Below are positions 22,671 through 39,423 of a stretch of 64,000 nt of DNA, piece by piece. The notes below the pieces were generated by a model, which ran no database searches, had not been told where the DNA came from, and saw only the letters and a program-made list of their open reading frames with translations. Source of the stretch: Candidatus Eiseniibacteriota bacterium (GTDB lineage Bacteria > Eisenbacteria > RBG-16-71-46 > CAZAMP01); NCBI GenBank assembly GCA_965224245.1, contig OZ245046.1:160001-224000 (forward strand), given 5' to 3'. Position numbers and translations under genes: made by a program. Numbering within the stretch: position 1 is the stretch's first letter; the number at the start of each line of letters is the position of its first letter.

Positions 22671-22837
22671 GGACACTTCCATCTCGCTTGATCGACGGAG
22701 GTTAGGAGATAGTCGGTCAGCGGGTCAACGATGGTGCCGAGGATCGGGAGGCAATCCCGCGATGGAAGGAGGATCCGATCGATCTCGGACACGACGCTGG
22801 TCGCTCCCGGACAGCGCACCTCTTCGCAAGAAGGGGA

Positions 22838-23600: not shown

Positions 23601-26540
23601 TCACTCTCCAGTCGGAGATGCGCCGGAGATCCGCGTCAGTCTTGCAGCCGCGTCGACCGCCTCGGGCAGCGGTACGTCCGGATCGCCCCAGCGCGCGAGG
23701 AACTGGCGATAGTGTGCCTCGGCCATCACGATCTCACCGCGACTCTCCTCGAGGCGTGCCAGCGGATGGAGCACGGCCGTGTCGATGATGCGCCACTCGC
23801 CGTGCTCGAACTCCCGACCGAGCCGCGGATAGGGCGGCTCGATCACGCGGCGGTAGGCCTCGATGGCGGCGGTGGTGTCTCCGAGCGCGAGCGACAGTCG
23901 CGCATTCAGCTCTTCCTCCCTCTGCCGGTCCCGGTAGGCCGGCGAGAACCGGGACGCCGCGACCAGCGCCTCCTGTGCCGACGCGGTCAGATCCCGGTCG
24001 AGCGCGATCTCCGCGGACAGGAAGAGGTGCCAGACCTCGGCCTCCGGGCTGCGTGTCGTCGGAAGTGCGGTGCGAGATTCCTCGGCCACCGCGTCGGCAC
24101 CCGGACGGTCGCCGGAGGCGAGCAGGGCGCGAACCAGCCAGTACCGGGCTCGCCAGTAGTACTCGTTCGAGGCGATGGCCTCGCGAGCGGCGTCTCCGGA
24201 CTCCTCCGGCCGGCCGATCAAGAGAAAGACCTCGGCCCGTATCGAATGAAACATGGCCGGGTCCCAGGTCGGCATCGGGTTCAGCCAGATGACCCTCTCC
24301 TCTCGCGACAGCCCATCGAGGAAGCGTCCCTGGCACAGTGCCGCCAGTCCGGCGATGTGTTCGCTGTATGCCCGTTGATAGCCTTCCAGACGCTCGTTCC
24401 CGGCTCGCGCCACCCTCTCGGCCTCGGCGCCGTCGCCGACCTGCATGAGTGCGACGGCGTATCGGTACCATCCACCCCACTGCCCGGCCCTCATTCTCTC
24501 CGATGCGCGCTGCTCGAGCTCCGTCCAATCGCGTCGCGCGGTCAGGAGCGCCATCTCGAGATCCGTCACGACGGGGGTGGTCGCCCCGTCGGCACGTATC
24601 GACCGGATCATGGCTGTGACCTCGGCGGCGTCGCCCCTGAACAGCGAGTGCTCCGCCCAGTGATGGAGCACGACCTGGTAGCTCGGGTCGATCGAGAGCG
24701 CGCGCTCGAATGCGGCCTGTGCCCGGACGGGATCCCAGTGGCGAGCCGAGTGGGTCAGAACCTCACCGAATGCGTCGTGCGCGGCCGCGATCTGGACCTC
24801 GGCCACGATCAGCGGCTCGAGCAGATCGAAGGCCGAGTCGAACTCGGCATCGTTCCAGTCGACCGTCGCCTGGTAGATCGTGCGCCACTGCTCCGAGAGC
24901 CGATCCGTGTACGGGAGTCCCTGCCGCAGCGCCACGTGGGATCCGGCCTGGTCACCCTGCCAGTTCAGAGCCTGAGCCATCTGGAAGTACGCCATGGCGA
25001 AGCTCTCGTCACGGCGGATGGCGGCGGCGAAGTGCTCCGCGGCTTCCTCGAACTCCTGATGATGCAGCGCGAGCTCTCCGGCCGCGTAGTCACGGTATGC
25101 GTCCGGCGACGCGGTCAAGGTACGGGCGAGATCGAACCCGTCGGCCGCGCCGCCGCCGGTGGTCACCCCGAGCTCCCGGCGCACCTCGTTCGCTACGTCG
25201 CCGGCCAGTGCAAAGAGCTCATCCTCGTTCGCGGCATCGTGCCGGCGTGACCCGATGGTGTTCCCGGTGTGCACGTCGACCAGCTCGGCCGTGAGCACGA
25301 TCCGGGAGTTCACGTCCATCACCTGCCCGACCACCATGACGTCGAGCTGTGCGATGCGGGCCGCCTCCCGCGCCAGCGCCATCTCGAGGCCCGGGGTCCG
25401 CGCGCCCGCCCGCTCGAGAGATGCGGTGATCTTCGCCGTCGACGCGATGTCGAGGCCTCCCGACTCCACCAGGGCCGTCGTCACGAGCGCCATGAGCATG
25501 CGGCCGATGTGACCGGAGTCCTCGGGATCGGCGAGGTTCTCGAACCCGACGACGCCCACCGTGGAGCCCGATCCGAGGACGACGTCGGCGGTGGGGCGTA
25601 GCAGGAACCACAGCGTGGCGGTCACGGCAATGACGACGACGGATGCGATCACGGCGGTCACCGGGATCGGCCGGGGACGCCCGGGAAGGGAGCGACCGGG
25701 CGGGTTCGCCGCGAGGTCGACGAGGGCATCGAGCACCTCGGCGCCGCTCTGATACCGCGTGGCGGGGTCCTTCTGGAGACAGCGGTCCACGATCGCATCG
25801 AACCGCGCGGGCAGCGACGGCACGAACTCGCTCGGTGACGTGGGGGCGTCCCGCAGGATCGCGGACGTGAGATCGGAGGGCGTGGCTCCCTGAAACGGCC
25901 GTCGCCCGGTTGCCAGCTCGTGCAGGAGAATGCCCAGCGAGAACACGTCCGTCCGAAGATCGACCTCCAGGCCTCGGACCTGCTCCGGCGACATGTAGGG
26001 AAGCGTGCCGACGACCGAGCCCACCTCCGTCACCGCCGGCGTCGTGGTTTCCGATCCGATCGCGGGGGGAGCGACCAGCTTGGCGAGCCCGAAGTCGAGC
26101 ACCTTGATCGCGCCGTCGTCGGTTGTCATGACGTTCGCGGGCTTCAGATCCCGGTGCACGATCCCTTTCGCATGCGCCGCGGCGAGGGCACGCGCGATCG
26201 CGGTGCCCGTCTCGAGCAGTCGCGCGAACGGCATCCCGCCGGGAGGGATCGTGCGATCCAGGCTCGTGCCATCCACCAGCTCCATGGTCAGGAAGTGGAC
26301 GGCGCCCGCCTGCTCGACCGAGTGGATCGTCACGATGTGGGGATCGTTCAGCGCGGCGATCGTCTTGGCCTCGCGCTCGAAGCGAGCCAGGCCGGCGGGA
26401 TCGGACGCCAGCGAGGCGGGGAGGACCTTGAGCGCGACCCGCCGCTCGAGCGTCAGGTCGTCGGCGACGTAGACCTCTCCCATCCCGCCGGCCCCGATCC
26501 GGTCGAGGATCCGGTAGTGGCCCAGAGTTTCGCCGATCAA
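23601..26540 (-). CDS. Ser/Thr kinase with TM helix, TolB-N-like domain and TPRs
   Basis: GGAGGG RBS then TTG; LIGETLGHYRILDRIGAGGMGEV, HRDLKPAN, DFG, SPEQ; TM; VVGFENL; T.SPDAY; TPRs; paralog of the 19770 gene. Confidence 0.9.
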   Translation of the reverse strand: MIGETLGHYRILDRIGAGGMGEVYVADDLTLERRVALKVLPASLASDPAGLARFEREAKTIAALNDPHIVTIHSVEQAGAVHFLTMELVDGTSLDRTIPPGGMPFARLLETGTAIARALAAAHAKGIVHRDLKPANVMTTDDGAIKVLDFGLAKLVAPPAIGSETTTPAVTEVGSVVGTLPYMSPEQVRGLEVDLRTDVFSLGILLHELATGRRPFQGATPSDLTSAILRDAPTSPSEFVPSLPARFDAIVDRCLQKDPATRYQSGAEVLDALVDLAANPPGRSLPGRPRPIPVTAVIASVVVIAVTATLWFLLRPTADVVLGSGSTVGVVGFENLADPEDSGHIGRMLMALVTTALVESGGLDIASTAKITASLERAGARTPGLEMALAREAARIAQLDVMVVGQVMDVNSRIVLTAELVDVHTGNTIGSRRHDAANEDELFALAGDVANEVRRELGVTTGGGAADGFDLARTLTASPDAYRDYAAGELALHHQEFEEAAEHFAAAIRRDESFAMAYFQMAQALNWQGDQAGSHVALRQGLPYTDRLSEQWRTIYQATVDWNDAEFDSAFDLLEPLIVAEVQIAAAHDAFGEVLTHSARHWDPVRAQAAFERALSIDPSYQVVLHHWAEHSLFRGDAAEVTAMIRSIRADGATTPVVTDLEMALLTARRDWTELEQRASERMRAGQWGGWYRYAVALMQVGDGAEAERVARAGNERLEGYQRAYSEHIAGLAALCQGRFLDGLSREERVIWLNPMPTWDPAMFHSIRAEVFLLIGRPEESGDAAREAIASNEYYWRARYWLVRALLASGDRPGADAVAEESRTALPTTRSPEAEVWHLFLSAEIALDRDLTASAQEALVAASRFSPAYRDRQREEELNARLSLALGDTTAAIEAYRRVIEPPYPRLGREFEHGEWRIIDTAVLHPLARLEESRGEIVMAEAHYRQFLARWGDPDVPLPEAVDAAARLTRISGASPTGE

Positions 26541-26604
26541 GATCCCTCCATCGGACGGGCTGGCCGAGCGGGAACGCCGGAGCCACGAGGAGTAGTATCC
26601 GAGA

Positions 26605-27021
26605 GTGCGAACGTGTTGCCAACCGGTTGTTTGCGGCAACGCGAGGCGTGTCGCACCCCGCAGGTCGTCGTCCCGCGGTGACCCACGCCGAGGTTTCCGT
26701 TTCCGATGCTCGGCGGCAGCCTGCCCAACGCCCGCGCCGCCGGCGGCTACGCGCTTCGAGCGGATCGTGCCGACCCCTTCCCGGCTGCGCACGCGCATGT
26801 CGTTCTCGGTCGCGAAGGCCGGGCATGTCACGCTGAGCATCTACGATGCACGCGGTCGTCTCGTGCGCGTTCTCGCGGACGCCTCGATGACGGAGGGGAT
26901 GCACCGGCTCGACTGGGACGGCACGAGCACGCACGGCGAGACGATGCCGAACGGGACCTACTGGATCCGATTGCGGACGCTGGACGCGACGGTCAGTCGG
27001 CGCATCTCGATGGTTTGCTGA
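26605..27021 (+). CDS. Stand-alone or truncated FlgD-Ig/T9SS-like domain
   Basis: LSIYDARGRLVRVL..HRLDWDGTSTHGETMPNGTYWIRL; N-terminus not signal-like, start unclear; may be a gene relic. Confidence 0.55.
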   Translation: MRTCCQPVVCGNARRVAPRRSSSRGDPRRGFRFRCSAAACPTPAPPAATRFERIVPTPSRLRTRMSFSVAKAGHVTLSIYDARGRLVRVLADASMTEGMHRLDWDGTSTHGETMPNGTYWIRLRTLDATVSRRISMVC

Positions 27022-27479: not shown

Positions 27480-28061
27480 ATGGAATCCACGGCCACGCTT
27501 CTCTCCCTCGTTCGCGAGGGCGACGAGAAGGCCAAGAGCCGCCTCTTCGAGCGGTACCTTCCACTTCTCGTTCGATGGGCGTCGGGCCGGCTGCCGCCGG
27601 CGACCCGATCGCTGGCCGATACGAATGACCTCGTTCAGGTCACCCTCCTGAAAGCGTTGAACAAGGTAGACGGGTTCCAGCCCCGACACGAGGGGGCGTT
27701 TCTGTACTACCTGCGCCGAGCCCTCGTGAACCAGATCCGCGATCTGATCCGGCATGCGAAGCGGCAGCCCGAGATGCGGTCGCTCTCGGAGGACATTCCC
27801 GACCAGGGTGCAACACCGCACGGGGACGCGCTGAGGGGTGAGATCATGGATCGATACGACGCCGCTCTGGAGACGCTCACGCCGGCTCAGCGCGAGGCCG
27901 TCGTGTTGCGCCTGGAGCTGGGGCTCACGCACGTGCAGGTGGCCGAGGCGCTCGAGGACTGCCCGTCCGCGGACGCGGCGCGCATGCTGGTCACGCGCGG
28001 CATTCTCCGCCTGGCCAAGGAGATGGGACCCGACCTGAACCCCGATGGGAGCACCCGTTGA
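27480..28061 (+). CDS. ECF-family RNA polymerase sigma factor
   Basis: Region 2 DTNDLVQ..F..YL..N.IRD..R; region 4 LETLTPAQREAVVLR.ELGLT..QVAE.L. Confidence 0.9.
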   Translation: MESTATLLSLVREGDEKAKSRLFERYLPLLVRWASGRLPPATRSLADTNDLVQVTLLKALNKVDGFQPRHEGAFLYYLRRALVNQIRDLIRHAKRQPEMRSLSEDIPDQGATPHGDALRGEIMDRYDAALETLTPAQREAVVLRLELGLTHVQVAEALEDCPSADAARMLVTRGILRLAKEMGPDLNPDGSTR

Positions 28062-29749
28062 CGCCCGACGACGAGGTTCTTCGCAGGATAGCCGAGGAGA
28101 TCGCGGACCTCCGCTCCATCGACTGGGAGCAGGAGAGCGTCGTGGACGGCCCGCTGGCGGTGAGGCTAGGGAACCTGCGTCTTCTGGACGCGATCCGGTC
28201 TCTCCACCAGGACAGCGCGGACCCCGACGGTGCGACCACGACCGAGGATGCGAAGCCCGGTCCGTCGGCCGAACCGGAGATCGGCTCGTACTGGGGTCCG
28301 CTGCGTATCGTCGAGCGTGTCGGCCACGGATCCTTCGGCGACGTCTTCCGGGCGTGGGACCCGACGCTGCAGACACACGTGGCGCTCAAGCTGCTCCACC
28401 GGCGGCGAGGGAAACCGGGGCGGTTGCTCCGAGAAGCACGCCAGATGGCGAAGGTGCGTCACGAGAACGTCGTCACGGTGCACGGCGCCGCGGAGCACGA
28501 CGGGCGGATCGGGATCTGGACCGAGTTCATCGAGGGGAAGACGCTCGAGCAGGAGCTCTCCGAGCGCGGCGCCTACGGAGCCGACGAGGCGGCGCTGGTG
28601 GGCCGGGATCTCGTCCGCGCCATCGCCGCCGTCCACGCGGCCGGGCTCGTGCACCGCGACATCAAGACGACGAACATCATGCGCGCGGTGGGGGGGCGGC
28701 TGGTGCTCATGGACTTCGGCACCGTGATCGATCGGGAGCAGCTCGAGTCGCTCGGACCCTCCGACGCGTTCGTGGGAACGGCGCTCTACATGGCGCCCGA
28801 GCTCTTCCTGGAAGGACACGGCGGCAAGGCGGCCGACGTGTACTCGCTGGGTGTGGTTCTCTATCGCCTCGTGACCGGGACCTTCCCGGTCGACGCGAAG
28901 AACCCGATCGAGCTCGGGGCCAAGCATCGCCGAGGTGAGCGTGTCCCGCTGCGCGATGCCCGACCGGACCTGCCGGCCGCCTTCGTGAGCATCGTGGATC
29001 GCGCTCTCGCGACGACGCCCGAGGACCGGCCCGGAAGCATGGGCGAGATGGAACGCGAGCTGGTCTCGTTCCTGAGCGCGCTCCCCGGGGATCCCCGGTC
29101 CGTCCGACGGAGCCTCCCGCGCTGGATCCTCCCGTTGGCGGCGACCGCGCTCGTGGTGGTCGCGATCCTACTCTGGTCGCTCGTGTCCGGTGGTGCAGGG
29201 GAGCTCCGTGTCGATGCGGAGCTCTTCCGGGATCGGGTGGGGGTCGAGGAGCGGCTGCGAGCGGGCGGTCGCGTGCAGCCCGGAGACCACCTCTTCCTGG
29301 AGCTGCTCGCGTCGACCGACTTCCACGCCTACGTGTTCAACGAAGACGAGCAGGGAAACACGCATCTCCTGTTCCCGCTCACCGGGCTCGAGCCCTCCAA
29401 CCCGCTCGAGGGTGGACGCACCCACCGGCTACCCGGATCGCGCGACGGTGTTCCGTTGACCTGGGACGTCGACGCCTACGGCGGGCGCGAGACCCTGTAC
29501 ATCGTGGCGTCACGGGCTCCCCTCGAGGATCTCGAGGCAGAGATGCGACGCTTTCCCGAGGCGGGATCCTCGCCGGGGATCCCGATCGGGTCCGGTTTCC
29601 TGCGACGCAGCATCGGAGGGCTCGGGTCGGCCGCGGCCGAGCGGGCGGCGGATGAGCCGACGCTCGGAGACTTCATCGGCCGGCTATCGACCGAGCGAAC
29701 CAGTGAGCTCTGGACGTGGTCGATCCAGCTGGAGAATCAGCCACCATGA
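28058..29749 (+). CDS. Membrane Ser/Thr kinase with extracytoplasmic DUF4384-like domain
   Basis: VGHGSFGDV, VALK, HRDIKTTN, DFG, APE; TM WILPLAATALVVVAILLW; PGDHLFLE..YVFNEDEQG..LLFP..LP..GRET.YIVASR.PL; overlaps the sigma stop codon. Confidence 0.88.
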   Translation: MTPDDEVLRRIAEEIADLRSIDWEQESVVDGPLAVRLGNLRLLDAIRSLHQDSADPDGATTTEDAKPGPSAEPEIGSYWGPLRIVERVGHGSFGDVFRAWDPTLQTHVALKLLHRRRGKPGRLLREARQMAKVRHENVVTVHGAAEHDGRIGIWTEFIEGKTLEQELSERGAYGADEAALVGRDLVRAIAAVHAAGLVHRDIKTTNIMRAVGGRLVLMDFGTVIDREQLESLGPSDAFVGTALYMAPELFLEGHGGKAADVYSLGVVLYRLVTGTFPVDAKNPIELGAKHRRGERVPLRDARPDLPAAFVSIVDRALATTPEDRPGSMGEMERELVSFLSALPGDPRSVRRSLPRWILPLAATALVVVAILLWSLVSGGAGELRVDAELFRDRVGVEERLRAGGRVQPGDHLFLELLASTDFHAYVFNEDEQGNTHLLFPLTGLEPSNPLEGGRTHRLPGSRDGVPLTWDVDAYGGRETLYIVASRAPLEDLEAEMRRFPEAGSSPGIPIGSGFLRRSIGGLGSAAAERAADEPTLGDFIGRLSTERTSELWTWSIQLENQPP

Positions 29750-32700
29750 TCGGGATGTGGAGACTCGCGGCCGGTGCCGTGCTCCTCGCGACCTCCGCCA
29801 TGGCCGCGGAGACGGATCTGACGGCGCCCGAGCTCGACACACGGCTGGATCGGATCTGGACGATGATCCGGGACGAGCGAGCGTTCGCGGTCGCCGATTC
29901 CGTAGCGCTCGAGCTCCTGGCCGACGTGGAGACGTCGTTCGGGCACGAGTCCGTTTCCGTGGCGCGTGTGCTGGACCCGCTCGTGATCGCCCGACTCGGG
30001 CAGCGCGCGGTCGACGCGGAGTGCCTGAGCCTGGCCGAGCGGGCGGTCCGCATCAAGGAGCGGGACCCGGTTCCGGAGGAGCCCGAGCTGGCGACGAGTC
30101 TACTCGGTCTGGGCCGGGTGCTGCAGGTGCTGGAGCGATCCGGGGAGGCTCGTACGCCTCTGGAACGCGCTCTCGAGATCCGGCGGAGCCGGTTCGGCGC
30201 TGCATCCGCCGAGGTCGCGGACGTGCTCACACAGCTCGCGCAGGTCTACATCGATCTCGATCTCGAGCCGGAGGCCGCCAGCATGCTCCAGGAGACGCTC
30301 GCGATCTACGACGCGTCCCCGGACACCGACGTTCGCACGGTCAGTCCACTGCTATACAACCTCGCATGGCTCCGCCGCGCGCTCGGTCAGTTTCGAGCCG
30401 CCGAAGAGCTATACCAGAGGTTGCTCGACATCACGCCCGAGTCGGTGATGCTCGTTCGCGCGTCTGTCTTCAACGGCCTGGGAGCGCTCCATCACGAGGA
30501 GGGCCGGTACGCCGAGTCCCTGGCCGAGCTGGAGCACGCGCTCGCTGTCGCACGGGAGGCCGGGGCCCACCCGGTCCTGATGACACACATTCTCAACAAT
30601 CTCGGGTTCGTCTTGTCGAACCTCGGAGACCATGCAGAGGCCGTCACGCGCTACGACGAGGCGCTGTCGCTGCAGCGGGAGCTTCACGGCGACGAGCACA
30701 CCATGACCGCCACCATGCTCGCAAATCTCGCCGAGACGCACCTGGCCCTGGGACACGTGGACGAGGCCCGTGAGCTGCACGAGCAAGCGCTCGGCATCCG
30801 GGAGCGCATTCTCGGCCCGGACCACGCCGAGACGGCGACGAGCCTCGGCGGACTCGCCGAGGTCTATCTCGAGATGGACCGGCCCGATGACGCTCGGCGG
30901 CTGCTGGAACGCGCGCTCGCGATCCGCACACGTCATCTCGGTCCCGATCACTTCGACACCGGCAAGGCCGTGGCCCGATTGGCCCGGTCACTCGCGGCGT
31001 CGGACAGCCTGGACGCGGCCGAGCGATCGTATCGCCGGGCGCTGGACGTGATCGCGGCCACGCTGGATCGGGGCAACCCGGAATGGTCCGAGGTCAGTCT
31101 CGGGCTCGCCGAGGTCGAGCTGTCTCGTGGCGCGTTCACGGAGGCCTGGACGCTGGCGCGCGAGGCCGAGACGCGATCCCGCGAGCACGCGAGGCTCACG
31201 GCGGCCGCGCTGTCGGAGCGCCAGGCGCTGCAGTACGCCTCGATCCGCAAGGAGGCGCTGGATCTCATCTTGACCCTCGTGGTGTCCGGGCATCGGAGCG
31301 ATGCACTGGAGGCCTGGGACCACGTGATTCGTTCCCGGGCCCTGGTCCTGAACGAGGTCGTGCTGCGTCGCGAGCGGCTGCACGCCGAAGCCGACACGTC
31401 GGTGACGCGGCTCATGGCCCGCTACGCGGATGCGAGCACCGCGCTCGCCACGCTGATGGTCCGGGGACCGGATGCCTCCGACCCGGGCTCGTTCCGCGAC
31501 CGGCTCCGGGAGGCGCGTGCCGACCGCGAACAGGCCGAGCGGGCCCTTGCGCTCCGCAGCTCGGCATTTCGCGATCGTCTGGCCACCGCCCGGCGCGGCG
31601 CCAATCAGGTGCTCGCGGCCCGGCCCGAGGGCTCGGCGGTTCTCGCGTACGTCCGCTACGAGCGATCCGGTCCGGGTCCCGGCGCGGCCTACGCGGCCTT
31701 CGTGACCGGGAAGGGCGCGGCCGCTCCCGTCGTGGTGGATCTCGGGAGCGCCGAGTCGATCGACGCCCTCGTCGCGGACTGGAGAGCGGAGGTGGTTCTC
31801 CCGTCGCCGGCCGATCTGGATCGGGCGACCCGACGGTATCGAGACGTGGGGAGGCGGCTGCGCGAGGCGATCTGGGATCCGGTCGTCCCCGCGCTCGAGG
31901 ATGCACGGACCGTCTTCGTGGTACCCGATGGTGAGCTGCATCGCGTCAGCGCCTACACGCTGCCGGACGAAGGCGGCTACCTGGTCGAGTCGGGAATCCG
32001 GGTGCACTACCTGGCCGCCGAGCGTGACCTCGTCGAGCCGCCGACGGAGGCCGAGGGTCGCGGGATGCTCGCGCTCGGGGGCCCCGACTTCGATGCGACC
32101 GACGACACGGTGACGCCGGTCACCGAGGCGGGTCCGGCGAGCCGTAACGGGGCGGTCCGATTCAGTCCGCTTCCGGGAACCCGTGCGGAGGTGAAGGCGG
32201 TAGCCGGCTTCTGGACGGGCGGTGATGCCGTCGTCCTGACCGGCCCCGACGCGTCGGAGGCCGCGTTCAAAGCGCGCGCACCGGGATGCCGCGTGGTCCA
32301 CGTGGCCACGCACGGCTTCTTTCGTGAGGCGACGCTCCGCTCGGGACGGGCCAGGACCCGCTCGATCGGTGGGCTGTCGGCCCGGCCGCCCGTGGCCCCA
32401 CACGAGCGGATGCCCGTGTTGTCCGGACTCGCGCTTGCGGGCGCGAACCACGGGATGGACCGGAGCTCGTCCGGTGAGGACGGGATCCTGACCGCCGAGG
32501 AAGTCGCCGCTCTCGATTTCTCGGGGACGGAGTGGGTCGTGCTCTCGGCATGTGACACCGGACTCGGTGACATCGAGTCCGGGGAGGGCGTGGTCGGGCT
32601 CCGGCGGGCGTTCGAGGTGTCGGGCGTCGGAACCGTCATCATGAGTCTGTGGGACGTGGATGACGAGGCCACCCGGCGGTGGATGCAGCAGCTGTACCTC

Positions 32701-32841
32701 GGTCGGTTCGAGCGAAAGGAGACCACGGTAGACTCGATGTGGGAGGCCTCGCGAGAGGTCCTCGAGTGGTGTCGCGAGAGCCTCGGCACCGATCATCCGT
32801 TCTTCTGGGGAGCGTTCGTCGCCGCCGGTGACTGGCGCTGA
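29746..32841 (+). CDS. Exported TPR-CHAT (caspase-like, clan CD) protease
   Basis: Signal peptide ending SAMA-AE; kinesin-light-chain-type TPRs (LGPDH.ETA.SL..LA); HVATHG (His 32311), VVLSACDTG (Cys 32551), SLWDVDD, HPFFWGAFV..GDWR; ATGA overlap with the kinase. Confidence 0.92.
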   Translation: MIGMWRLAAGAVLLATSAMAAETDLTAPELDTRLDRIWTMIRDERAFAVADSVALELLADVETSFGHESVSVARVLDPLVIARLGQRAVDAECLSLAERAVRIKERDPVPEEPELATSLLGLGRVLQVLERSGEARTPLERALEIRRSRFGAASAEVADVLTQLAQVYIDLDLEPEAASMLQETLAIYDASPDTDVRTVSPLLYNLAWLRRALGQFRAAEELYQRLLDITPESVMLVRASVFNGLGALHHEEGRYAESLAELEHALAVAREAGAHPVLMTHILNNLGFVLSNLGDHAEAVTRYDEALSLQRELHGDEHTMTATMLANLAETHLALGHVDEARELHEQALGIRERILGPDHAETATSLGGLAEVYLEMDRPDDARRLLERALAIRTRHLGPDHFDTGKAVARLARSLAASDSLDAAERSYRRALDVIAATLDRGNPEWSEVSLGLAEVELSRGAFTEAWTLAREAETRSREHARLTAAALSERQALQYASIRKEALDLILTLVVSGHRSDALEAWDHVIRSRALVLNEVVLRRERLHAEADTSVTRLMARYADASTALATLMVRGPDASDPGSFRDRLREARADREQAERALALRSSAFRDRLATARRGANQVLAARPEGSAVLAYVRYERSGPGPGAAYAAFVTGKGAAAPVVVDLGSAESIDALVADWRAEVVLPSPADLDRATRRYRDVGRRLREAIWDPVVPALEDARTVFVVPDGELHRVSAYTLPDEGGYLVESGIRVHYLAAERDLVEPPTEAEGRGMLALGGPDFDATDDTVTPVTEAGPASRNGAVRFSPLPGTRAEVKAVAGFWTGGDAVVLTGPDASEAAFKARAPGCRVVHVATHGFFREATLRSGRARTRSIGGLSARPPVAPHERMPVLSGLALAGANHGMDRSSSGEDGILTAEEVAALDFSGTEWVVLSACDTGLGDIESGEGVVGLRRAFEVSGVGTVIMSLWDVDDEATRRWMQQLYLGRFERKETTVDSMWEASREVLEWCRESLGTDHPFFWGAFVAAGDWR

Positions 32842-32866
32842 ATGCACCCCGGCAAGGAGCCGTGTC

Positions 32867-33607
32867 ATGAAGATCGTATGGTACATCGTCGTGATCGTCG
32901 TCGTGGTGATCGGGATCGTGCTCCTGAGACCCCTGTGGTGTGGTGACGACGACCCGGTCACGCATCTCGTCATCGAGCACACGAACGCGGGCCCGTGGAT
33001 GGACATGAACAACACGTTCAGTGACGTGTTCGACGAGGACGACGCCAAGACGTTCCGCCCCGGTGTGCTCTTCCAGCTCGGCGACTACGCCGGCATGGCG
33101 TTCTACAACTACCTCGAGGTCCGGATCTTCGAGGGCTCCACGCCCACCGTCTTCAAAGACGGGGTCTGGGTCAACATCATCTCCGAGTTCGACGAGCACC
33201 CCGGCGAGCCGATGCTGCCGGACGAGGCCTTCATCCTGTACCCCAACTCGAATCCGGCCAGCGGCTGCGTTGCCGACGATATCAACTGTCTGCGCAACCG
33301 TTCGCTGCACGGCGGGATGAACGAGAACGACGAGATCAAGAGTCTGATGACCTACTGGCAGGGTCCGAACGGGTACCGGATCTCCGCGCAGGAGGAGAAG
33401 CAGCCCAACTCGGGTAACGCCTTCCGGTTCACGTTCGAGGATCCGTTCCGGGTCGACGTCTACGAGCCGGCCGACTGGAACACCGGACCCACGATGGGAT
33501 CTCCGATCCGCTTCAAGGTGGGCGACGTCGACTCCATCGTGGTCGCCGTCAGCGCAGGACCGCCGGAGAAGGGACAGCTCGTGCAGCCACCGTGGCCGGT
33601 GCCGTGA
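32867..33607 (+). CDS. Hypothetical protein with N-terminal membrane anchor
   Basis: AAGGAG RBS; MKIVWYIVVIVVVVIGIVLL; strong C/G third-position bias. Confidence 0.75.
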   Translation: MKIVWYIVVIVVVVIGIVLLRPLWCGDDDPVTHLVIEHTNAGPWMDMNNTFSDVFDEDDAKTFRPGVLFQLGDYAGMAFYNYLEVRIFEGSTPTVFKDGVWVNIISEFDEHPGEPMLPDEAFILYPNSNPASGCVADDINCLRNRSLHGGMNENDEIKSLMTYWQGPNGYRISAQEEKQPNSGNAFRFTFEDPFRVDVYEPADWNTGPTMGSPIRFKVGDVDSIVVAVSAGPPEKGQLVQPPWPVP

Positions 33608-33633: not shown

Positions 33634-35982
33634 ATGCCGACACGAGACTCCGACTCTCGCGATGCGAGGACGACACAGGCTCGACAGCTTCTCGTGAGGC
33701 TCGACGCCGACGTGCCGTCCGACGAGCTCGGGGCGGACGGTGCCGATCTCGCCATCTTCAGCGAGCTTCTCGCGCGGTATCCCGATCTGACCATCCGGCA
33801 GAGCTTTCCGAAGTTCGTGCACCGGCTCCGCGTCCGCCACCAGGGCGAGGTGCCGGTGCCGAAGGGTCAGCCGCAGCGGAGGCTCGATCTCTTCTTCCGG
33901 GTGACGGTGCCCGATCCGAACTCGGACCTGCGCCGACTGCTCAAGGAGATCCGTGAGACGGACGGAGTGTCGGACGCGCGCCTCGTCATCCCCGCGTCGT
34001 CGATTCCGCCTGCGACCGACTGTGGCGTGAGCGGCCTCCAGGGGTATCACGCACGGAGCAGCGATGACGGCGTCGACACGTGCTACGCCTGGAACGTCAC
34101 GTCGGTTCCGCCGGGCAAGCCCGACGGTGGAGGCGCCGGCGAGGGCGTCGTCGTCTGCGTCGTCGACCGGGACTTCGGAGCGGACCACGTCAACGGTGCG
34201 ACGGTTACCACCGAGCTGGGCACTCCACCGGGCGACAACGACGCCTACAAGCAGCACGGCTCGAAGGTGCTCGGAATCCTCGGATCGCCGGGCAGCAAGG
34301 GCCGAAAGCTCCGTGGCATCTGCCCGGGGGCGACCTTCTGCTTCTCGTACGTGACCGACGAGACCTACGGGATACCGCTGTCGACGCGCTTCAACGAGGC
34401 GATCGACGACGCGATGGTGCACCTCGAGCACGCGATCGAGCTGGAGCAGGGCGCGGTGCTCGTCCTGCAAGCTCAGCTGGACGCGGGCAGCGAGGGGATT
34501 CCGGTGTCGGCGGGACCGGTCACGCTGCCGATCGAGGCCAACGAGGACGTGTATGCCGCACTGGGAACGGCCGCCTCCGAGGGGATCACCGTCGTCGAGG
34601 CGGCGGCCAACGGCGACGCGGAGCTCGTGAAGATCTTCGACGAGACGACGGTGTACTGGGACCCCGAGCCTGGGGACGGGACGTCGTCGGGTGCCATCAT
34701 GGTCGGCGGTGGGGACTCCGCCAGTCACGACTGGCTCTCCGACAGCAACTGGGGCTCTCGCGTGGATTGTCAGGGCTGGGGACACAACGTGTTTGCCCCC
34801 AGCAGTCCCGACGAGGAGCCCGGCACGATGTCCTTCGGCACGAACGAGGCCTACGACCCCGACTTTGGTGGGACCTCGGCCGCGACCGCGATGGTGGGTG
34901 GGATCGTGGCGGCGCTCCAGGGCGCGTACCACGCGGTCGAAGGCGAGTTCCTGGAGCCCGCGACGGTTCGCGAGATGCTCGGGAACGCCGATCTGGGGAA
35001 CGCGGATCCGCTCGGTCGGATCGGCCCCTTTCCCGATCTCTACCGGCTTCTCTGCTCGCGGAACATCTGCCCCGATCTCTTCATCCGCGACGATGATGCG
35101 GATACGGGTGTCCGGCCGCTCGATCTGTTGCTGGGGTTCGCCGCACCGATCTTCTCCTTCACCAGTCCCGACGTCTTCGTTCAGCCGGAGAAGGCGATCC
35201 CCACGACGTTCGACGCCGCGGCCGCAGTCGCTGCACTCGGCTACCCGCGGGTCGACGGCGGCGCGAATCACGTCCACGCCCGCGTGAGGAACCGAGGGCG
35301 AGGCACCGATGGCGGCCGGGTGTCGATCTTCTGGTCGAGGCCCAGCTCGTTTCTGCATCCTCATTGGTGGGAGCCCGCCGGATTGCCCGGGTCGTTGCCT
35401 TCCACTCGACCCGCGGGCGAGTCGGTCGCGCACATACCCTGGGATGCGCCCTTCGAGGGTGCCCCGGAGCACTGTGCGCTCATCGCCGTCGTTTCACCTA
35501 GTCGCGGCAGCGTCGTCGAGTTCGACGCGTCGATGTCCATGATGGAGTTCCGTGACCTCATCCGCACCCGGAACGACATCGCGGTTCGAAACGTGCACGT
35601 GGGGTTCGTCGAGGCGGGCGGAGTCGTCTGGTTTCGGTATCACCTCAGAGGCCGCCCCGAAGCGGCCAGTACCTTCCGGCTCAAACTCGGGACCGATGTT
35701 CCAGCGGGAGGCACGCTGGAGCTGAGTCCGGATACGAGCGTGACGTTCAAGGGAGCCGGGGGCGCGTTCCCGGTGCCGTCGGGCGCCGTCACGGCGCTGG
35801 CCCTGGGAAACATCGTCGCGGAGGTCGATCTCGGCAAGGGCACCGAGATCATCTTCGACATGGGGGTGAAGGTGCCCGCGAGCACGTCTCCGGGCACCTA
35901 CACCCTGACGATCGATCAGAACTTCGGCATCCTGCACCTCGGACGCTGCACGTACGTCATCGTCGTCCCGCCGCCGACCTGA
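33634..35982 (+). CDS. S8 (subtilisin-like) serine protease with C-terminal beta domains
   Basis: VCVVD (Asp), QHGSKVLGIL (His), AAANG, FGGTSAA (Ser); C-terminal DLFIRD..SPDVFV..VHARVRNRG; no obvious signal peptide. Confidence 0.85.
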   Translation: MPTRDSDSRDARTTQARQLLVRLDADVPSDELGADGADLAIFSELLARYPDLTIRQSFPKFVHRLRVRHQGEVPVPKGQPQRRLDLFFRVTVPDPNSDLRRLLKEIRETDGVSDARLVIPASSIPPATDCGVSGLQGYHARSSDDGVDTCYAWNVTSVPPGKPDGGGAGEGVVVCVVDRDFGADHVNGATVTTELGTPPGDNDAYKQHGSKVLGILGSPGSKGRKLRGICPGATFCFSYVTDETYGIPLSTRFNEAIDDAMVHLEHAIELEQGAVLVLQAQLDAGSEGIPVSAGPVTLPIEANEDVYAALGTAASEGITVVEAAANGDAELVKIFDETTVYWDPEPGDGTSSGAIMVGGGDSASHDWLSDSNWGSRVDCQGWGHNVFAPSSPDEEPGTMSFGTNEAYDPDFGGTSAATAMVGGIVAALQGAYHAVEGEFLEPATVREMLGNADLGNADPLGRIGPFPDLYRLLCSRNICPDLFIRDDDADTGVRPLDLLLGFAAPIFSFTSPDVFVQPEKAIPTTFDAAAAVAALGYPRVDGGANHVHARVRNRGRGTDGGRVSIFWSRPSSFLHPHWWEPAGLPGSLPSTRPAGESVAHIPWDAPFEGAPEHCALIAVVSPSRGSVVEFDASMSMMEFRDLIRTRNDIAVRNVHVGFVEAGGVVWFRYHLRGRPEAASTFRLKLGTDVPAGGTLELSPDTSVTFKGAGGAFPVPSGAVTALALGNIVAEVDLGKGTEIIFDMGVKVPASTSPGTYTLTIDQNFGILHLGRCTYVIVVPPPT

Positions 35983-36109: not shown

Positions 36110-36420
36110 CGAAAACACCTGCATGCTATCAGCTTCACCCGACCCCTGATGCGCCCCCCGCCACGCACCGCCACACCTCGATCCTCTGGACACACCACGG
36201 CCGCGGACGTCGGCGGTCGTGTATCCCGTTCCGGCACGATGCGAAGGGAGGTCTTCGACACGGCACAGGGACATGAAGGAGCGCCGGGAGCGGAGTCTCG
36301 CGTCAGCGACTGGACGTCACTCCGCGGATTCGCCGAGGAGAGCTCACGCACCCTTCGCCCGGACCCTCGAGCAGGGTGCGAGGATCACGCGTACGCCGAG
36401 CAATCACGAGGAGCCATGTC

Positions 36421-37362
36421 ATGCGAGCCATCCGCGATACGGTGGGTACTTCACTCTCGATCCTGGCCGTGAGCCTGCTGCTCAACGCGAGCGTGTCGGC
36501 GCAGCCGGAGCCTTACCAGATCTTCGACGCGCCGGTCGGTGGCGAGATCGTGGGCTGTCCACCCTACCTGACGGCCATGCACACGATCACCAACACACAC
36601 GACGAGCTGAACGTCACCACGATCTTCCAAGGTGGTAGCGCCGTGGGATCTCTTCTCTCCGGTTGCCACAATCACAAGGAAGGGTACGAAGGCGACCCTG
36701 AGCCGACGGTCGAGCGTTGCTTCGAGGCAGGGGTCGATTCGCTTCCGGGCACGACGATGGTGCTCGTAGCCGAGATCGCGGGCGTCACGCACATCGTCGC
36801 CGTGGAGGGGCCCATCAAGATCCGGCGTTACGGCGATGTCGCCGATCCCGGCCCCGCGACGATCGAGCTGGATGAGATGGTCATGACGGGACAGACGGAC
36901 ACCGGTTACGCGGTGACGCTTCGCATCGGTGCCAGCCTGGGCCTCCCGCCGTCCATGGGTACCGTGGAGCGTGCCACGTCCAGTCAGGATCCCTCGATCG
37001 ACATCGGACGCGTTCAAGCCCTGGTCAATGCCGAGATCCTGCTCGAGGGAACCGTCGGCGTGTCGGACGTCATCAGGCCGGGCATGTTTCTCGCGCAGAA
37101 TCGCCCGAATCCGTTTCGCCAGGCCACGGAGATTCTGTTCGCCCTCGCCGACCGGAGTGGACCCGTTTCGCTGGACATCTACGGCGCCAGCGGCGGAGTC
37201 GTGCGGACGCTGATCACCGAGCCGTCGCTCGAGGCCGGAGAGCATCGCGTCTCGTGGGACGGCCGGAACGCAGACGGCGAGCCGGTCGCGTCGGGGAGCT
37301 ACTACTACAAGCTTCGGGTCGGCGACAGGGAAGTGAGGAGGAAGCTGAGCATTCTCAGATGA
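36421..37362 (+). CDS. Secreted protein with C-terminal FlgD-Ig/T9SS-like domain
   Basis: GAGGAG RBS; signal ending VSA-Q; LAQNRPNPF..WDGRNADGEPVASGSYYYKL. Confidence 0.82.
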   Translation: MRAIRDTVGTSLSILAVSLLLNASVSAQPEPYQIFDAPVGGEIVGCPPYLTAMHTITNTHDELNVTTIFQGGSAVGSLLSGCHNHKEGYEGDPEPTVERCFEAGVDSLPGTTMVLVAEIAGVTHIVAVEGPIKIRRYGDVADPGPATIELDEMVMTGQTDTGYAVTLRIGASLGLPPSMGTVERATSSQDPSIDIGRVQALVNAEILLEGTVGVSDVIRPGMFLAQNRPNPFRQATEILFALADRSGPVSLDIYGASGGVVRTLITEPSLEAGEHRVSWDGRNADGEPVASGSYYYKLRVGDREVRRKLSILR

Positions 37363-37578
37363 CGGAATGCGCGCCAAGCGCGCGGACCCCGCACGCCGGC
37401 CCGAACACACGTTTGGTTTCGGTCCCGATTGCGAGCCTCGGCAATGGAGCCGTCTCGAATCCCATCGGTCCATGGGGCTCCAGTGCCATACCATCAAGGC
37501 TGACCCAGCCTGAGCATGTCGCCGAAGCATGGCGGAACGTCGGGAATGCACGGCTTCCCTCGGGTGAGAGGATTCGCA

Positions 37579-39423
37579 ATGGGCCATTCGACAGCACGCC
37601 TGTGCCACATCGCACGTCGTTGGTGGAGCTCCATTCCGGCGGTGTGGGCCGTCTGTGCCACGCTCGTCCCCGGGCCGACGACGGCCGCCGGGACCGCGGC
37701 CCGAGACGTCGACCTCGCGCCGGCGTTCCAGGTGCGATCGCAGAATCTCGACGCGTCCCGGCGAACCCTCGAAGCGGTGTCGACCGGGGAGTTCAGCGCG
37801 GTCTGGGTCTACCTGACCGACAAGGCGATCTTCGACTCGGAGTCGTGTCGCGCTCGTCTGAGCGAGGTTCGCAATGTACTCGACGAACGTGCGATCCGCC
37901 GGCGGCGCCGCAGTCTCGGTCCGGAACTCGTCGACTTCTTCGATGTTCCGGTCCACGCGCCGTACCGCGCGGCGCTCGAACGCATGGGGGCGGTCGTCCG
38001 CCGCGAGAGCCGCTGGCTCAATGCCGTCAGCATCGAGGCGAGCCGCGACGTGCTGGAACAGGTGATCACCCTCGAGTTCGTTCAGCGCATCGAGCCGGTT
38101 CGCGCGTACCGGACGACCCCGGGCGGCGGCACCTTCGGATCGGGATCGGCCGGACGAAGCGCGGTGCCGAGATCGGTGCAGCGCGGCACGATCGACTACG
38201 GCCCATCGTTCGACCAGCTCGACGAGATCGGCGTCATCGACGCGCATTCGGCGGGGTTCACCGGGGCCGGCGTGCTGATCACGCTGCTCGACACCGGGTT
38301 CAAGCGCGACCATCCCGCCTTCCAGCACATCCTCGACGACGGCCGTCTGGTCGCACAGTGGGATTTAGTGAACGACGACGGCGAGACGATGGACGGACCC
38401 GAAGACGTTCCGGGTGGGCAAGACCACGGCAGCAGCGTGTGGTCGGTGTGCGCGGGCTTCACCGAGGGCGAGCTCATCGGTCCGGCCTACGGCGCCAGCT
38501 ACGCGCTGGCGAAGACGGAGGACGTCACCAGCGAGACGCCGCTGGAGGAAGACAACTGGATCGCCGCCGCGGAGTGGGCCGACGCGCTCGGCACCGACAT
38601 CATCTCCTCGTCGTTGACGTACACCGACTGGTACACCGTCGACGACATGGACGGGGACACGGCCGTGATCTCCGTCGGCGCCGATGTGGCGGCCAGTCGC
38701 GGAATCCTGGTCAGCGTGGCCGCCGGCAACATGGGTGACCAGGACTGGTACATCGTCACCCCGGCCGCCGACGCCGACAGCGTCATCGCCGTCGGAGCGG
38801 TGGACGCCGACAATCAGCTGACCGGGTTCTCCAGCCATGGTCCCACGGCCGACGGGCGCACCAAGCCGGAGGTCGTCGCACGAGGGTTGGCCGTCGTGTG
38901 TGCGTGCAACTTCACGCATGACCCGCTCGGCGACGAGTTCGCCACGAACAACGGGACGTCCCTGGCGGCGCCTCTGGTCTCGGGGGCGGCCGCGCTCGTG
39001 ATCGAAGCCCACCCCGGGTGGTCGGCGATGGAGGTGCGCACGGCCCTCATGGCGACGGCCGACAACGCCGAGACCCCGGACAACGATCGTGGATGGGGGC
39101 GAATCGACGCATGGAGCGCGATCACGGGCACGGTCGCCGTTCCCGAGATAGTCCCCGCGGTCCCGGTGCTCCTCGCGACGCCCAATCCATCCGGCGCGAC
39201 CATTCGTCTGATCGTGCCGTACACGAGCCAGGCGGGGCACGTGGAGGTGCACGATGTCCAGGGACGTCTCGTGTGGTCGGCGCCGATGCCGGCCGGAGGC
39301 ACCGAGGTCACGTGGGACGGTCGCGATCGCTCCGGTCGAGTCGTCGGTCAGGGCGTCTACGTCGCGAGCCTTCGCGCCGGCGACTGGCGCGCGACCGCGA
39401 AGCTGGTCCGCGGGGGGCCGTGA
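37579..39423 (+). CDS. Secreted S8 serine protease with C-terminal FlgD-Ig/T9SS-like domain
   Basis: SRWLNAVS prodomain, LLDTG, DHGS, AAGN, KPEVVARG, NGTSLAAP; PNP..WDGRDRSG..GVY; start approximate. Confidence 0.9.
   Translation: MGHSTARLCHIARRWWSSIPAVWAVCATLVPGPTTAAGTAARDVDLAPAFQVRSQNLDASRRTLEAVSTGEFSAVWVYLTDKAIFDSESCRARLSEVRNVLDERAIRRRRRSLGPELVDFFDVPVHAPYRAALERMGAVVRRESRWLNAVSIEASRDVLEQVITLEFVQRIEPVRAYRTTPGGGTFGSGSAGRSAVPRSVQRGTIDYGPSFDQLDEIGVIDAHSAGFTGAGVLITLLDTGFKRDHPAFQHILDDGRLVAQWDLVNDDGETMDGPEDVPGGQDHGSSVWSVCAGFTEGELIGPAYGASYALAKTEDVTSETPLEEDNWIAAAEWADALGTDIISSSLTYTDWYTVDDMDGDTAVISVGADVAASRGILVSVAAGNMGDQDWYIVTPAADADSVIAVGAVDADNQLTGFSSHGPTADGRTKPEVVARGLAVVCACNFTHDPLGDEFATNNGTSLAAPLVSGAAALVIEAHPGWSAMEVRTALMATADNAETPDNDRGWGRIDAWSAITGTVAVPEIVPAVPVLLATPNPSGATIRLIVPYTSQAGHVEVHDVQGRLVWSAPMPAGGTEVTWDGRDRSGRVVGQGVYVASLRAGDWRATAKLVRGGP

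Follow-up and report, generated by a model that had tools for sequence, protein, structure and literature searches.

Introduction

TPR-CHAT proteases are wired to extracytoplasmic function (ECF) sigma factors in the systems Craspase and DdvA/DdvS, and ECF sigma factors of the ECF43 type are paired with transmembrane Ser/Thr kinases. To our knowledge, bacterial CHAT proteases are abundant and very few of them have a known substrate, and we know of no input mechanism for the kinase-controlled ECF sigma factors. Here, we describe a module in a stretch of 64,000 nucleotides from a Candidatus Eiseniibacteriota bacterium (assembly GCA_965224245.1, contig OZ245046.1, positions 160,001 to 224,000 of the forward strand; the whole stretch is called the window) in which three genes on the same strand abut, encoding an ECF sigma factor, a transmembrane Ser/Thr kinase and a TPR-CHAT protease, and in which kinase and protease carry the same short peptide, RSIGGL. 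Judged from the sequences of cognate pairs in related genomes, this motif pair is conserved and co-evolves between kinase and CHAT domain, which suggests that the protease recognizes, and probably cuts, the outer sensor domain of the kinase. The module is a concrete candidate for a CHAT protease and its substrate as well as for the input of a kinase-controlled sigma factor, with a candidate site at residue level (kinase Arg517-Leu522, protease Arg882-Leu887) and with natural variants that predict specificity.

In Craspase, the type III-E CRISPR system Csx29/Csx30/Csx31/RpoE, the TPR-CHAT protease Csx29 cuts Csx30 inside its C-terminal beta domain, which is a DUF4384 domain in some Csx30 groups, and Csx30 binds the ECF sigma factor RpoE (10.1101/2022.08.17.504292). 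The cut follows Met (AVGM|KKDK) or Leu, and the portion of this source available to us reports no copy of the substrate motif inside Csx29. In DdvA/DdvS of Myxococcus xanthus, a periplasmic TPR-CHAT protease is coupled to an ECF sigma factor, the CHAT domain being fused to a zinc-binding anti-sigma domain in one transmembrane chain, and a flexible linker that faces the active site was proposed to be cut autoproteolytically (PMC11506125); neither a kinase, a DUF4384 domain nor a matched motif pair is part of DdvA as described in the excerpts of that source. In ECF43 (EcfP/PknT of Vibrio parahaemolyticus and EcfK/PknS of Xanthomonas citri), the gene of an ECF sigma factor directly precedes that of a transmembrane Ser/Thr kinase whose sensor domain is periplasmic (PMC13147305, PMC7826278). 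The ECF43 kinases have other ectodomains than the kinase studied here (TPR in PknS), the accessible parts of these sources describe no protease partner, and ECF43 members typically lose the DxxD patch of region 2.2, which is replaced by uncharged residues and a conserved Thr (PMC13147305). Among the caspase-fold enzymes, separase, which cuts after Arg, is found with securin bound in its active site (PMC11506125), while the Arg specificity of gingipain R is taken here from the title of its structure entry.

The locus in the window compares with these systems as follows. The ECF sigma gene, the first of the module (27480-28061, + strand; Pfam Sigma70_r2 at 3.9e-13, Sigma70_r4_2 and Sigma70_ECF), abuts the start of the kinase gene (28058-29749, +; 563 amino acids (aa); Pkinase at 9.3e-43 and DUF4384 at 3.4e-11) with no anti-sigma gene in between, as in ECF43, and this pairing recurs in at least 66 loci, as cross-referenced by hand among the 150 sigma matches listed. 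The sigma factor reads A-D-T-N-D-L-V-Q-V-T and therewith keeps both Asp residues of the DxxD patch, the Glu after the Gln being replaced by Val-Thr, a comparison made by eye with the partial description in PMC13147305. The TPR-CHAT protease gene (29746-32841, + in its likely extent; CHAT at 9.6e-60 and TPR_12 at 7e-59) resembles Craspase in linking such a protease to an ECF sigma factor, in the presence of DUF4384, the family of the kinase ectodomain, in the cut C-terminal domain of some Csx30 groups (as far as the available text goes), and in that Csx29 chains are among the best structural matches of its CHAT model. However, Craspase is cytoplasmic and switched on when Cas7-11 binds target RNA, whereas the protease of the window appears to carry a signal peptide and to stand alone (no search aimed at Cas7-11 was made); a periplasmic protein, as the signal peptide argues, would be incompatible with a Cas7-11-bound protease. 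The partner is a Ser/Thr kinase instead of the anti-sigma-like Csx30, so that the DUF4384 domain belongs to a Pkinase protein and not to one with a helical N-terminal domain binding RpoE and Csx31. With DdvA, whose structure ranks first among the matches of the CHAT model (8rot, E 7.8e-10), the module shares a TPR-CHAT protease that is predicted to be periplasmic and is coupled to an ECF sigma factor, but the protein starts with a signal-peptide-like segment followed by TPRs, and Pfam finds no anti-sigma domain in it. Moreover, His and Cys of the catalytic dyad are 80 residues apart here and 45 in DdvA (H862, C907 in the excerpted text of PMC11506125), owing to an inserted loop. The module thus combines kinase-controlled ECF sigma factors with TPR-CHAT proteases wired to ECF sigma factors and is a member of neither kind, because the protease is neither Cas-bound nor fused to an anti-sigma factor and the sigma factor keeps its DxxD patch. 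Full-text searches of the literature retrieved no description of the pair of kinase and CHAT motifs, although neighborhoods of this kind could be mentioned in the supplements of PMC7826278 and of the work of Iyer et al. on the kinases of ECF43.

Conservation of the Shared Motif

RSIGGL is found at aa 517-522 of the kinase (29606-29623, +; codons CGC AGC ATC GGA GGG CTC) and at aa 882-887 of the CHAT protein (32359-32376, +; codons CGC TCG ATC GGT GGG CTG). As reported in the initial annotation, the six residues are identical while three of the six codons differ (those for Ser, Gly and Leu), and the Arg of the CHAT copy lies 16 residues past the catalytic His. This residue is His866, and the motif falls inside the segment from His866 to Cys946. 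Taken alone, this hexamer match is not significant, since at least one shared hexamer was obtained in 10.6% of 5000 residue shuffles of both proteins (mean 0.118 per shuffle), and it is least so when a 64 kb window is scanned. Genome-wide, RSIGGL occurs four times in 20928 six-frame open reading frames (ORFs) of at least 150 aa, and two of these occurrences are the neighbors described here. It is the conservation and co-variation in homologs that make the match more than chance.

The genome that contains the window encodes at least seven close CHAT paralogs, and the same ectodomain is found in four of its kinases. R-[SG]-[IVA]-G-[GA]-[LI] is present at the corresponding position of all four tails, and three pairs of a kinase and its adjacent CHAT match (RSIGGL/RSIGGL, RGIGGL/RGIGGV and RGAGAI/RGAGEI). 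The sigma-kinase-CHAT module is widespread in Candidatus Eisenbacteria: a profile of the four tails matches in 96 of the 206 genomes of the phylum, 84 of them with a best match at E <= 3.8e-17 by hand count (strong kinase-tail genomes). For comparison, 100 loci around tail matches were taken down the E-value list, skipping very short contigs and leaving out genome G072. The kinase loop of these loci reads L-R-G-[IV]-G-G-[LVM] nearly everywhere, so that the Ser of the window is a local variant; RSIGGL itself is not the family motif, which is R-G-[IV]-G-G-[LVM], but a local Ser-for-Gly version of it. The Arg of the kinase loop is invariant in all 39 rows of the ectodomain alignment, where it forms one of 9 invariant columns, and the consensus closes with a conserved ...W.R...LEN end. 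Searching a library of 1.84 billion representatives with the ectodomain profile gave 770 hits at E <= 1e-30; among 148 new top hits the strict motif was present in 140, and L-R-G was kept in the remaining 8.

Kinases and CHATs were paired by the position of the catalytic His, since stop-to-stop CHAT frames run upstream over the kinase gene. A CHAT bearing this His was present in the fetched stretch for 45 of 104 kinase ORFs, 40 times downstream on the same strand and 5 times convergently. Nearly all partner CHATs carry R-G-[IV]-G-G-[LVM] 12-20 residues after the catalytic His and before a conserved GLALAGAN strand. The loop Arg (R191 of the alignment) is invariant (39/39) and occupies one of 28 invariant columns, alongside the catalytic His and Cys. 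The strict motif is found in 41/44 CHATs of kinase loci and in 37/39 other CHATs from kinase-bearing genomes, compared with 3 of the 14 readable CHATs (16 fetched, with the frame of L166 dubious) from genomes without a kinase-tail hit; shuffled CHAT loops carry it at 3-5%. Going by these sequences, the CHAT motif depends on the presence of the kinase. CHATs are present in 76 of the 84 strong kinase-tail genomes and in 33 of the other 122, a hand count that takes G072 as one genome and includes many incomplete genomes.

Single loci deviate from this picture. The kinases of L100 (genome G037) and L103 (G148) have a degenerate loop; that of L100 has lost the Arg, and G037 shows no CHAT match at E <= 1e-30, which would fit a relaxed constraint without a partner in this single case from a 92% complete genome. 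Very long frames of 1782 and 1583 aa span the kinase tail match in L083 (G145:C50) and L107 (G090:C40), respectively; L107 looks frameshifted with its CHAT in pieces, and both could be fusions or assembly errors. L110 combines a much shorter His-Cys segment with an insertion in its kinase loop. Clades also differ in the residue that follows the catalytic Cys, CHATs of the RGVGGV type having SAC-H/R/Q-S and those of the RGIGG[LM] type SAC-D/E-T, which could mark a pocket difference or simply shared ancestry.

Co-variation Within Kinase-CHAT Pairs

Over the 11 residues following the Arg, the 42 linked pairs share on average 5.05 identities when cognate and 3.61 when non-cognate, an excess with a z of 8.1 that was reached by none of 20000 permutations. 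The four residues before the Arg (-4 to -1) give no cognate signal in the same pairs (z 0.6). Because relatives inflate such permutation tests, a CHAT tree with the motif masked was used to select 21 edge-disjoint sister pairs, of which 12 were positive, 2 negative and 7 ties (one-sided sign test, p 0.0065). Permuting partners within genomes (5 genomes with at least two linked pairs, 14 pairs) gave 4.64 for true versus 3.04 for permuted partners, reached by 17/20000 permutations. This within-genome permutation rules out genome composition, for instance an Ile/Val choice that tracks G+C, as the cause.

At identical residues the codons agree in 120/251 cases for cognate and 3735/7920 for non-cognate pairs (0.478 and 0.472). 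Since synonymous codon identity is equal in both, gene conversion or DNA copying is ruled out and the match is kept at the protein level, as had been argued before from the differing codons of the two RSIGGL copies.

A second sample comprised 40 further CHATs, picked by eye among 150 matches listed (149 more lie beyond these), from genomes whose kinase was without a downstream CHAT and in which the partners are located upstream or on another contig. For its 29 kinases the mean best identity to CHATs of the same genome was 5.66, compared with 4.27 under the null (standard deviation 0.19; 0/10000). Rare variants recur in both partners even across contigs, namely RGIGGT (in two genomes), RGIGSLG, RGIGLLV and RGVGGMVP, and in one genome that encodes two CHATs besides two unlinked kinases, each kinase can be assigned to one of the CHATs by its motif. 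Co-variation of the motif within cognate pairs of homologous operons, on which the initial annotation had staked its proposal, is therefore clearly present.

Predicted Structures and Topology of the Two Loops

The CHAT profile (PF12770) matches aa 710-1039 of the protease with 202.9 bits against a cut-off of 24. The AlphaFold2 model of this domain has a mean predicted local distance difference test score (pLDDT) of 85.6 and a predicted template modeling score of 0.86, and its Foldseek matches are DdvA, Csx29, gingipain R and separase (E 7.8e-10 to 1e-4), which assigns to the modeled domain a caspase/separase-like fold; a profile search of PDB sequences with the CHAT alignment retrieved nothing at E up to 0.01. 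The catalytic His866 (CAC, 32311-32313, +) of HVATHG and Cys946 (32551-32553, +) of LSACDTG correspond to the invariant H175 (39/39 rows) and C255 of the 39-row CHAT alignment and form the dyad of CHAT and clan CD proteases, by which proteolysis is predicted. Model residues 183-200, which hold the motif, fall below a pLDDT of 50; they correspond to a disordered insertion loop (aa 874-891; 32335-32388, +) between the strand after His866 and the strand GLALA, and in the model the loop begins 5 residues past the catalytic His.

The kinase ectodomain was modeled with a mean pLDDT of 86.6. Model residues 129-139 and 145-147 score below 50, and the motif lies in a stretch that is predicted to be disordered (aa 506-524; 29573-29629, +). 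It is followed by a C-terminal helix and beta-strand (aa 536-560; 29663-29737, +; helix 159-169 and strand 174-183 of the model, pLDDT 80-92), which pack back onto the DUF4384 sandwich, so that the order in the model is beta sandwich, disordered motif stretch, and then helix and strand against the sandwich. Because of this packing, a cut in the loop would leave, or release, a C-terminal element that is held non-covalently. Foldseek gave no match for the ectodomain model at E up to 0.001, which leaves the DUF4384 fold unplaced.

The kinase consists of the Pkinase domain (aa 84-328), a hydrophobic helix at about aa 356-377, the DUF4384 domain (aa 406-488) and the tail. Read from the translation, the helix would place DUF4384 and tail on the extracytoplasmic side and Pkinase in the cytoplasm. 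The longest protease ORF (29716-32841, +; 1041 aa, with a GTG start at 29716) comprises five TPR_12 stretches and the CHAT domain at aa 710-1039, whereas translation probably starts from the ATG at 29746, which forms an ATGA overlap with the stop codon of the kinase gene. The N-terminus then opened, MIGMWRLAAGAVLLATSAMA|AE, reads like a Sec signal peptide, and since this segment is signal-peptide-like the protease would be exported and the kinase oriented N-in/C-out, so that both motif copies should lie outside the cytoplasm. The GlyGly-CTERM and exosortase sorting signals were considered for the Gly-rich motif and rejected, as no C-terminal transmembrane helix follows either copy.

Proposed Mechanism and Alternative Explanations

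If two non-homologous loops drift and yet remain identical, something must read both. The substrate cleft of the protease is the simplest candidate for this reader, because the conserved dyad has the CHAT loop tethered next to it and because both loops are exposed; this choice is also favored by the invariant Arg followed by Gly, which resembles the sites of Arg-specific clan CD proteases, and by Craspase, whose TPR-CHAT protease cuts a sigma-controlling partner in a C-terminal beta domain that is DUF4384 in some Csx30 groups. We therefore give about an even chance to the explanation that a single protease site reads both loops, the kinase loop as a substrate and the loop of the protease as a pseudosubstrate or autocleavage loop. 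The common element is a short motif in flexible loops, an invariant Arg, then G-[IV]-G-G-[LVM] and a Pro/Ala-rich stretch, and a single site of the protease, most likely its substrate cleft, would read both copies. A cut in the kinase loop would disconnect the C-terminal helix and strand from the DUF4384 fold, thereby altering kinase activity and, through the kinase, the sigma factor. The built-in loop of the protease, a pseudosubstrate or a segment for autocleavage, would fill the same site until released by a signal, for which the TPR domain is a possible sensor. Both loops would drift together because both must fit one site, and different motif variants would keep paralogous modules in one cell insulated. 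We infer binding, cleavage, the choice of P1 and the effect on kinase and sigma factor. As P1, Arg would fit separase and gingipain, while the hydrophobic residue five positions after the Arg, preceded by Gly-Gly, would fit the preference of Craspase for Met or Leu. In separase, besides securin, loops of the enzyme itself serve as pseudosubstrates. Similar to securin and separase, a substrate-like segment would hold a caspase-fold active site until release; securin is a separate protein, though, and the accessible part of PMC11506125 describes no intramolecular loop that co-evolves with a substrate loop.

A bolder version, which we consider somewhat less likely than not, regards the motif as a co-evolving address code: the cleavage loop of the cognate receptor kinase would be duplicated in the protease, beside the catalytic His, as an intramolecular pseudosubstrate, the variants would insulate paralogous modules in a manner comparable to the specificity residues of two-component systems, a caspase-like protease that clips the ectodomain of a Ser/Thr kinase in a regulated manner would constitute a new switch for an ECF sigma factor, and caspase-fold proteases would generally be baited by DUF4384 with its loop, as is the case for some Csx30 proteins. 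If this is true, substrates of orphan CHAT and caspase-like proteases could be predicted from sequence by searching the genome for the protease's own loop motif, and Craspase, DdvA and the kinase-controlled ECF sigma factors would share the logic of a TPR-CHAT protease acting on a DUF4384-type bait to control a sigma factor.

Several observations weigh against the explanation favored here. The residues before the Arg differ systematically (R-L-R in the kinase, G-[TLS]-R in the CHAT) and do not co-vary, which would be unusual for the P1 residue of a protease reading P4 to P1. No CHAT column other than those of the motif, such as an acidic pocket residue, separates 84 motif-bearing from 16 motif-less CHATs, so that no dedicated Arg pocket was found; a model with Arg simply as P1 is weakened by this result and by the mismatch on the N-terminal side of the Arg. 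The closest characterized TPR-CHAT enzyme, Csx29, cuts after Met or Leu and not after Arg according to the part of its description consulted (10.1101/2022.08.17.504292), and AlphaFold2 leaves both the kinase and the CHAT loop undocked. There is no His-bearing CHAT in the fetched locus of 59/104 kinase ORFs, although 16 of these had less than 3.5 kb of downstream sequence, the upstream fetch was limited to 1.5 kb from the tail match, and several of their CHATs were later located upstream or on other contigs; large ORFs 3' of the CHAT-less kinases (8 scanned) are unrelated and encode Mfd-like, SMC, glycosyltransferase-like and FlgD_ig proteins and an enoyl-CoA hydratase. Three of the 14 CHATs keep the motif in genomes without a kinase-tail hit, while three of the 44 kinase-adjacent CHATs are without the strict motif (L082 in G191, L099 in G046 and L110 in G053), and matches within the genome are poor in G199, in G200 and in G079/G080/G088 (M versus T). 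The permutation z-scores overstate significance, as the genomes are related and mostly incomplete, and binding and cleavage of the kinase by the CHAT protease are predictions at this stage. The overall interpretation put forward initially, recognition or cleavage at RSIGGL, is supported in part, by the co-variation, the selection at protein level and the predicted disorder of both loops; the residues before the Arg neither match nor co-vary.

The main rival is non-proteolytic docking, in which both loops would be peptides for a common non-catalytic site on the TPR domain of the protease or on DUF4384 of the kinase, competing for it or tethering the proteins, with the motif left uncut. Co-variation towards identity needs only one shared reader and no proteolysis, TPR arrays commonly bind short peptides, the lack of matching N-terminal of the Arg is as compatible with docking as with cleavage, and the CHAT motif being mostly absent without the kinase (3/14 carry it) is expected if the CHAT loop engages the kinase. 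Nevertheless, we regard docking as rather unlikely: the catalytic dyad does not vary among the 39 aligned CHATs, which indicates that protease activity is retained; the anchor of the CHAT loop is 5 residues away from the catalytic His; exposed loops with an invariant Arg before Gly are typical of Arg-specific clan CD sites (separase, gingipain R); and in the AlphaFold2 model the kinase loop is not docked on the DUF4384 domain of the same chain. Recognition by a third protein would give the same co-variation, with kinase and CHAT as fellow substrates or clients, for example, of the S8 subtilase-like periplasmic protease encoded downstream; its gene and that of a 259-aa membrane protein come after the CHAT gene in this locus and in those of a few relatives. 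However, the S8-like gene lies downstream in only two fetched loci (L056 and L099) and near one paralogous module, whereas the motif pair is found in 41/44 linked pairs, and variants that co-exist and pair specifically in one genome would require one reader per module, which makes this explanation very improbable.

Still smaller is the probability of homotypic pairing, in which the identical segments would act as beta-strand or amyloid-like templates like the NLR/effector motifs of fungi and filamentous bacteria. A short Gly-rich and hydrophobic motif that is duplicated in neighboring genes and more alike within pairs is the search signature of that class (10.1101/2020.01.06.895854, in the part available), but the conserved core here is only 6 residues long and is followed by Pro-rich sequence whereas known motifs have about 20, both copies are internal loops between folded elements instead of chain ends and are probably extracytoplasmic, and Pfam finds no NLR-type NTPase domain in the kinase and CHAT proteins. 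Assignment to the amyloid signaling pairs, with their motif of about 20 residues at the effector C-terminus and NLR N-terminus, was rejected for the 6-residue internal loops and the missing NTPase domain. We would give hardly any credence, finally, to the view that the loops have no functional link and match by chance, by shared composition or by independent structural needs of two Gly-rich loops. The G+C content of the window is 67.7%, and a single hexamer match arises in about 11% of shuffles; this view is already disfavored by conservation and co-variation, since the motif is conserved across hundreds of representatives, the Arg is invariant in both proteins, cognate matching survives the sister-pair contrasts, the within-genome controls and the second sample, and the motif is mostly missing from CHATs of genomes without the kinase.

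Gene Neighborhood of the Module

The sigma, kinase and protease genes are best explained as a translationally coupled envelope signaling module. The protease gene is followed by a 259-aa ORF without Pfam match and with an N-terminal hydrophobic helix (32828-33607, +), a possible accessory gene whose homologs lie 3' of the CHAT gene in four other loci (L056, L043, L099 and L015). Further downstream, the S8 subtilase-like protein (33634-35982, +; Peptidase_S8 at 9.8e-11) is a possible accessory gene or regulon member, with homologs downstream in L099 and L056 and also near the paralogous module at G000:C1:5487136.

Outside the window, the same genome contains a related arrangement (G000:C1:3943653-3953158) of an ECF sigma factor, a 312-aa DUF4384 membrane protein in place of the kinase, a 1395-aa repeat protein and a CHAT paralog. 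The loop of this CHAT is without the motif (T-R-M-D-G-A-K), and the DUF4384 protein carries V-R-G-T-G-G-A-S between its membrane helix and the domain, which is only loosely like the loop of its CHAT.

Kinase signaling genes are abundant in the region around the module, where two large Ser/Thr kinases with C-terminal TPR arrays (Pfam) are encoded just upstream (19770-22682 and 23601-26840, both -). A few kb downstream, a FlgD_ig-domain protein (36376-37362, +) and an S8 subtilase with FlgD_ig (37516-39423, +) are found, and FlgD_ig proteins are also encoded 3' of some kinases without a CHAT neighbor (L060 and L066).

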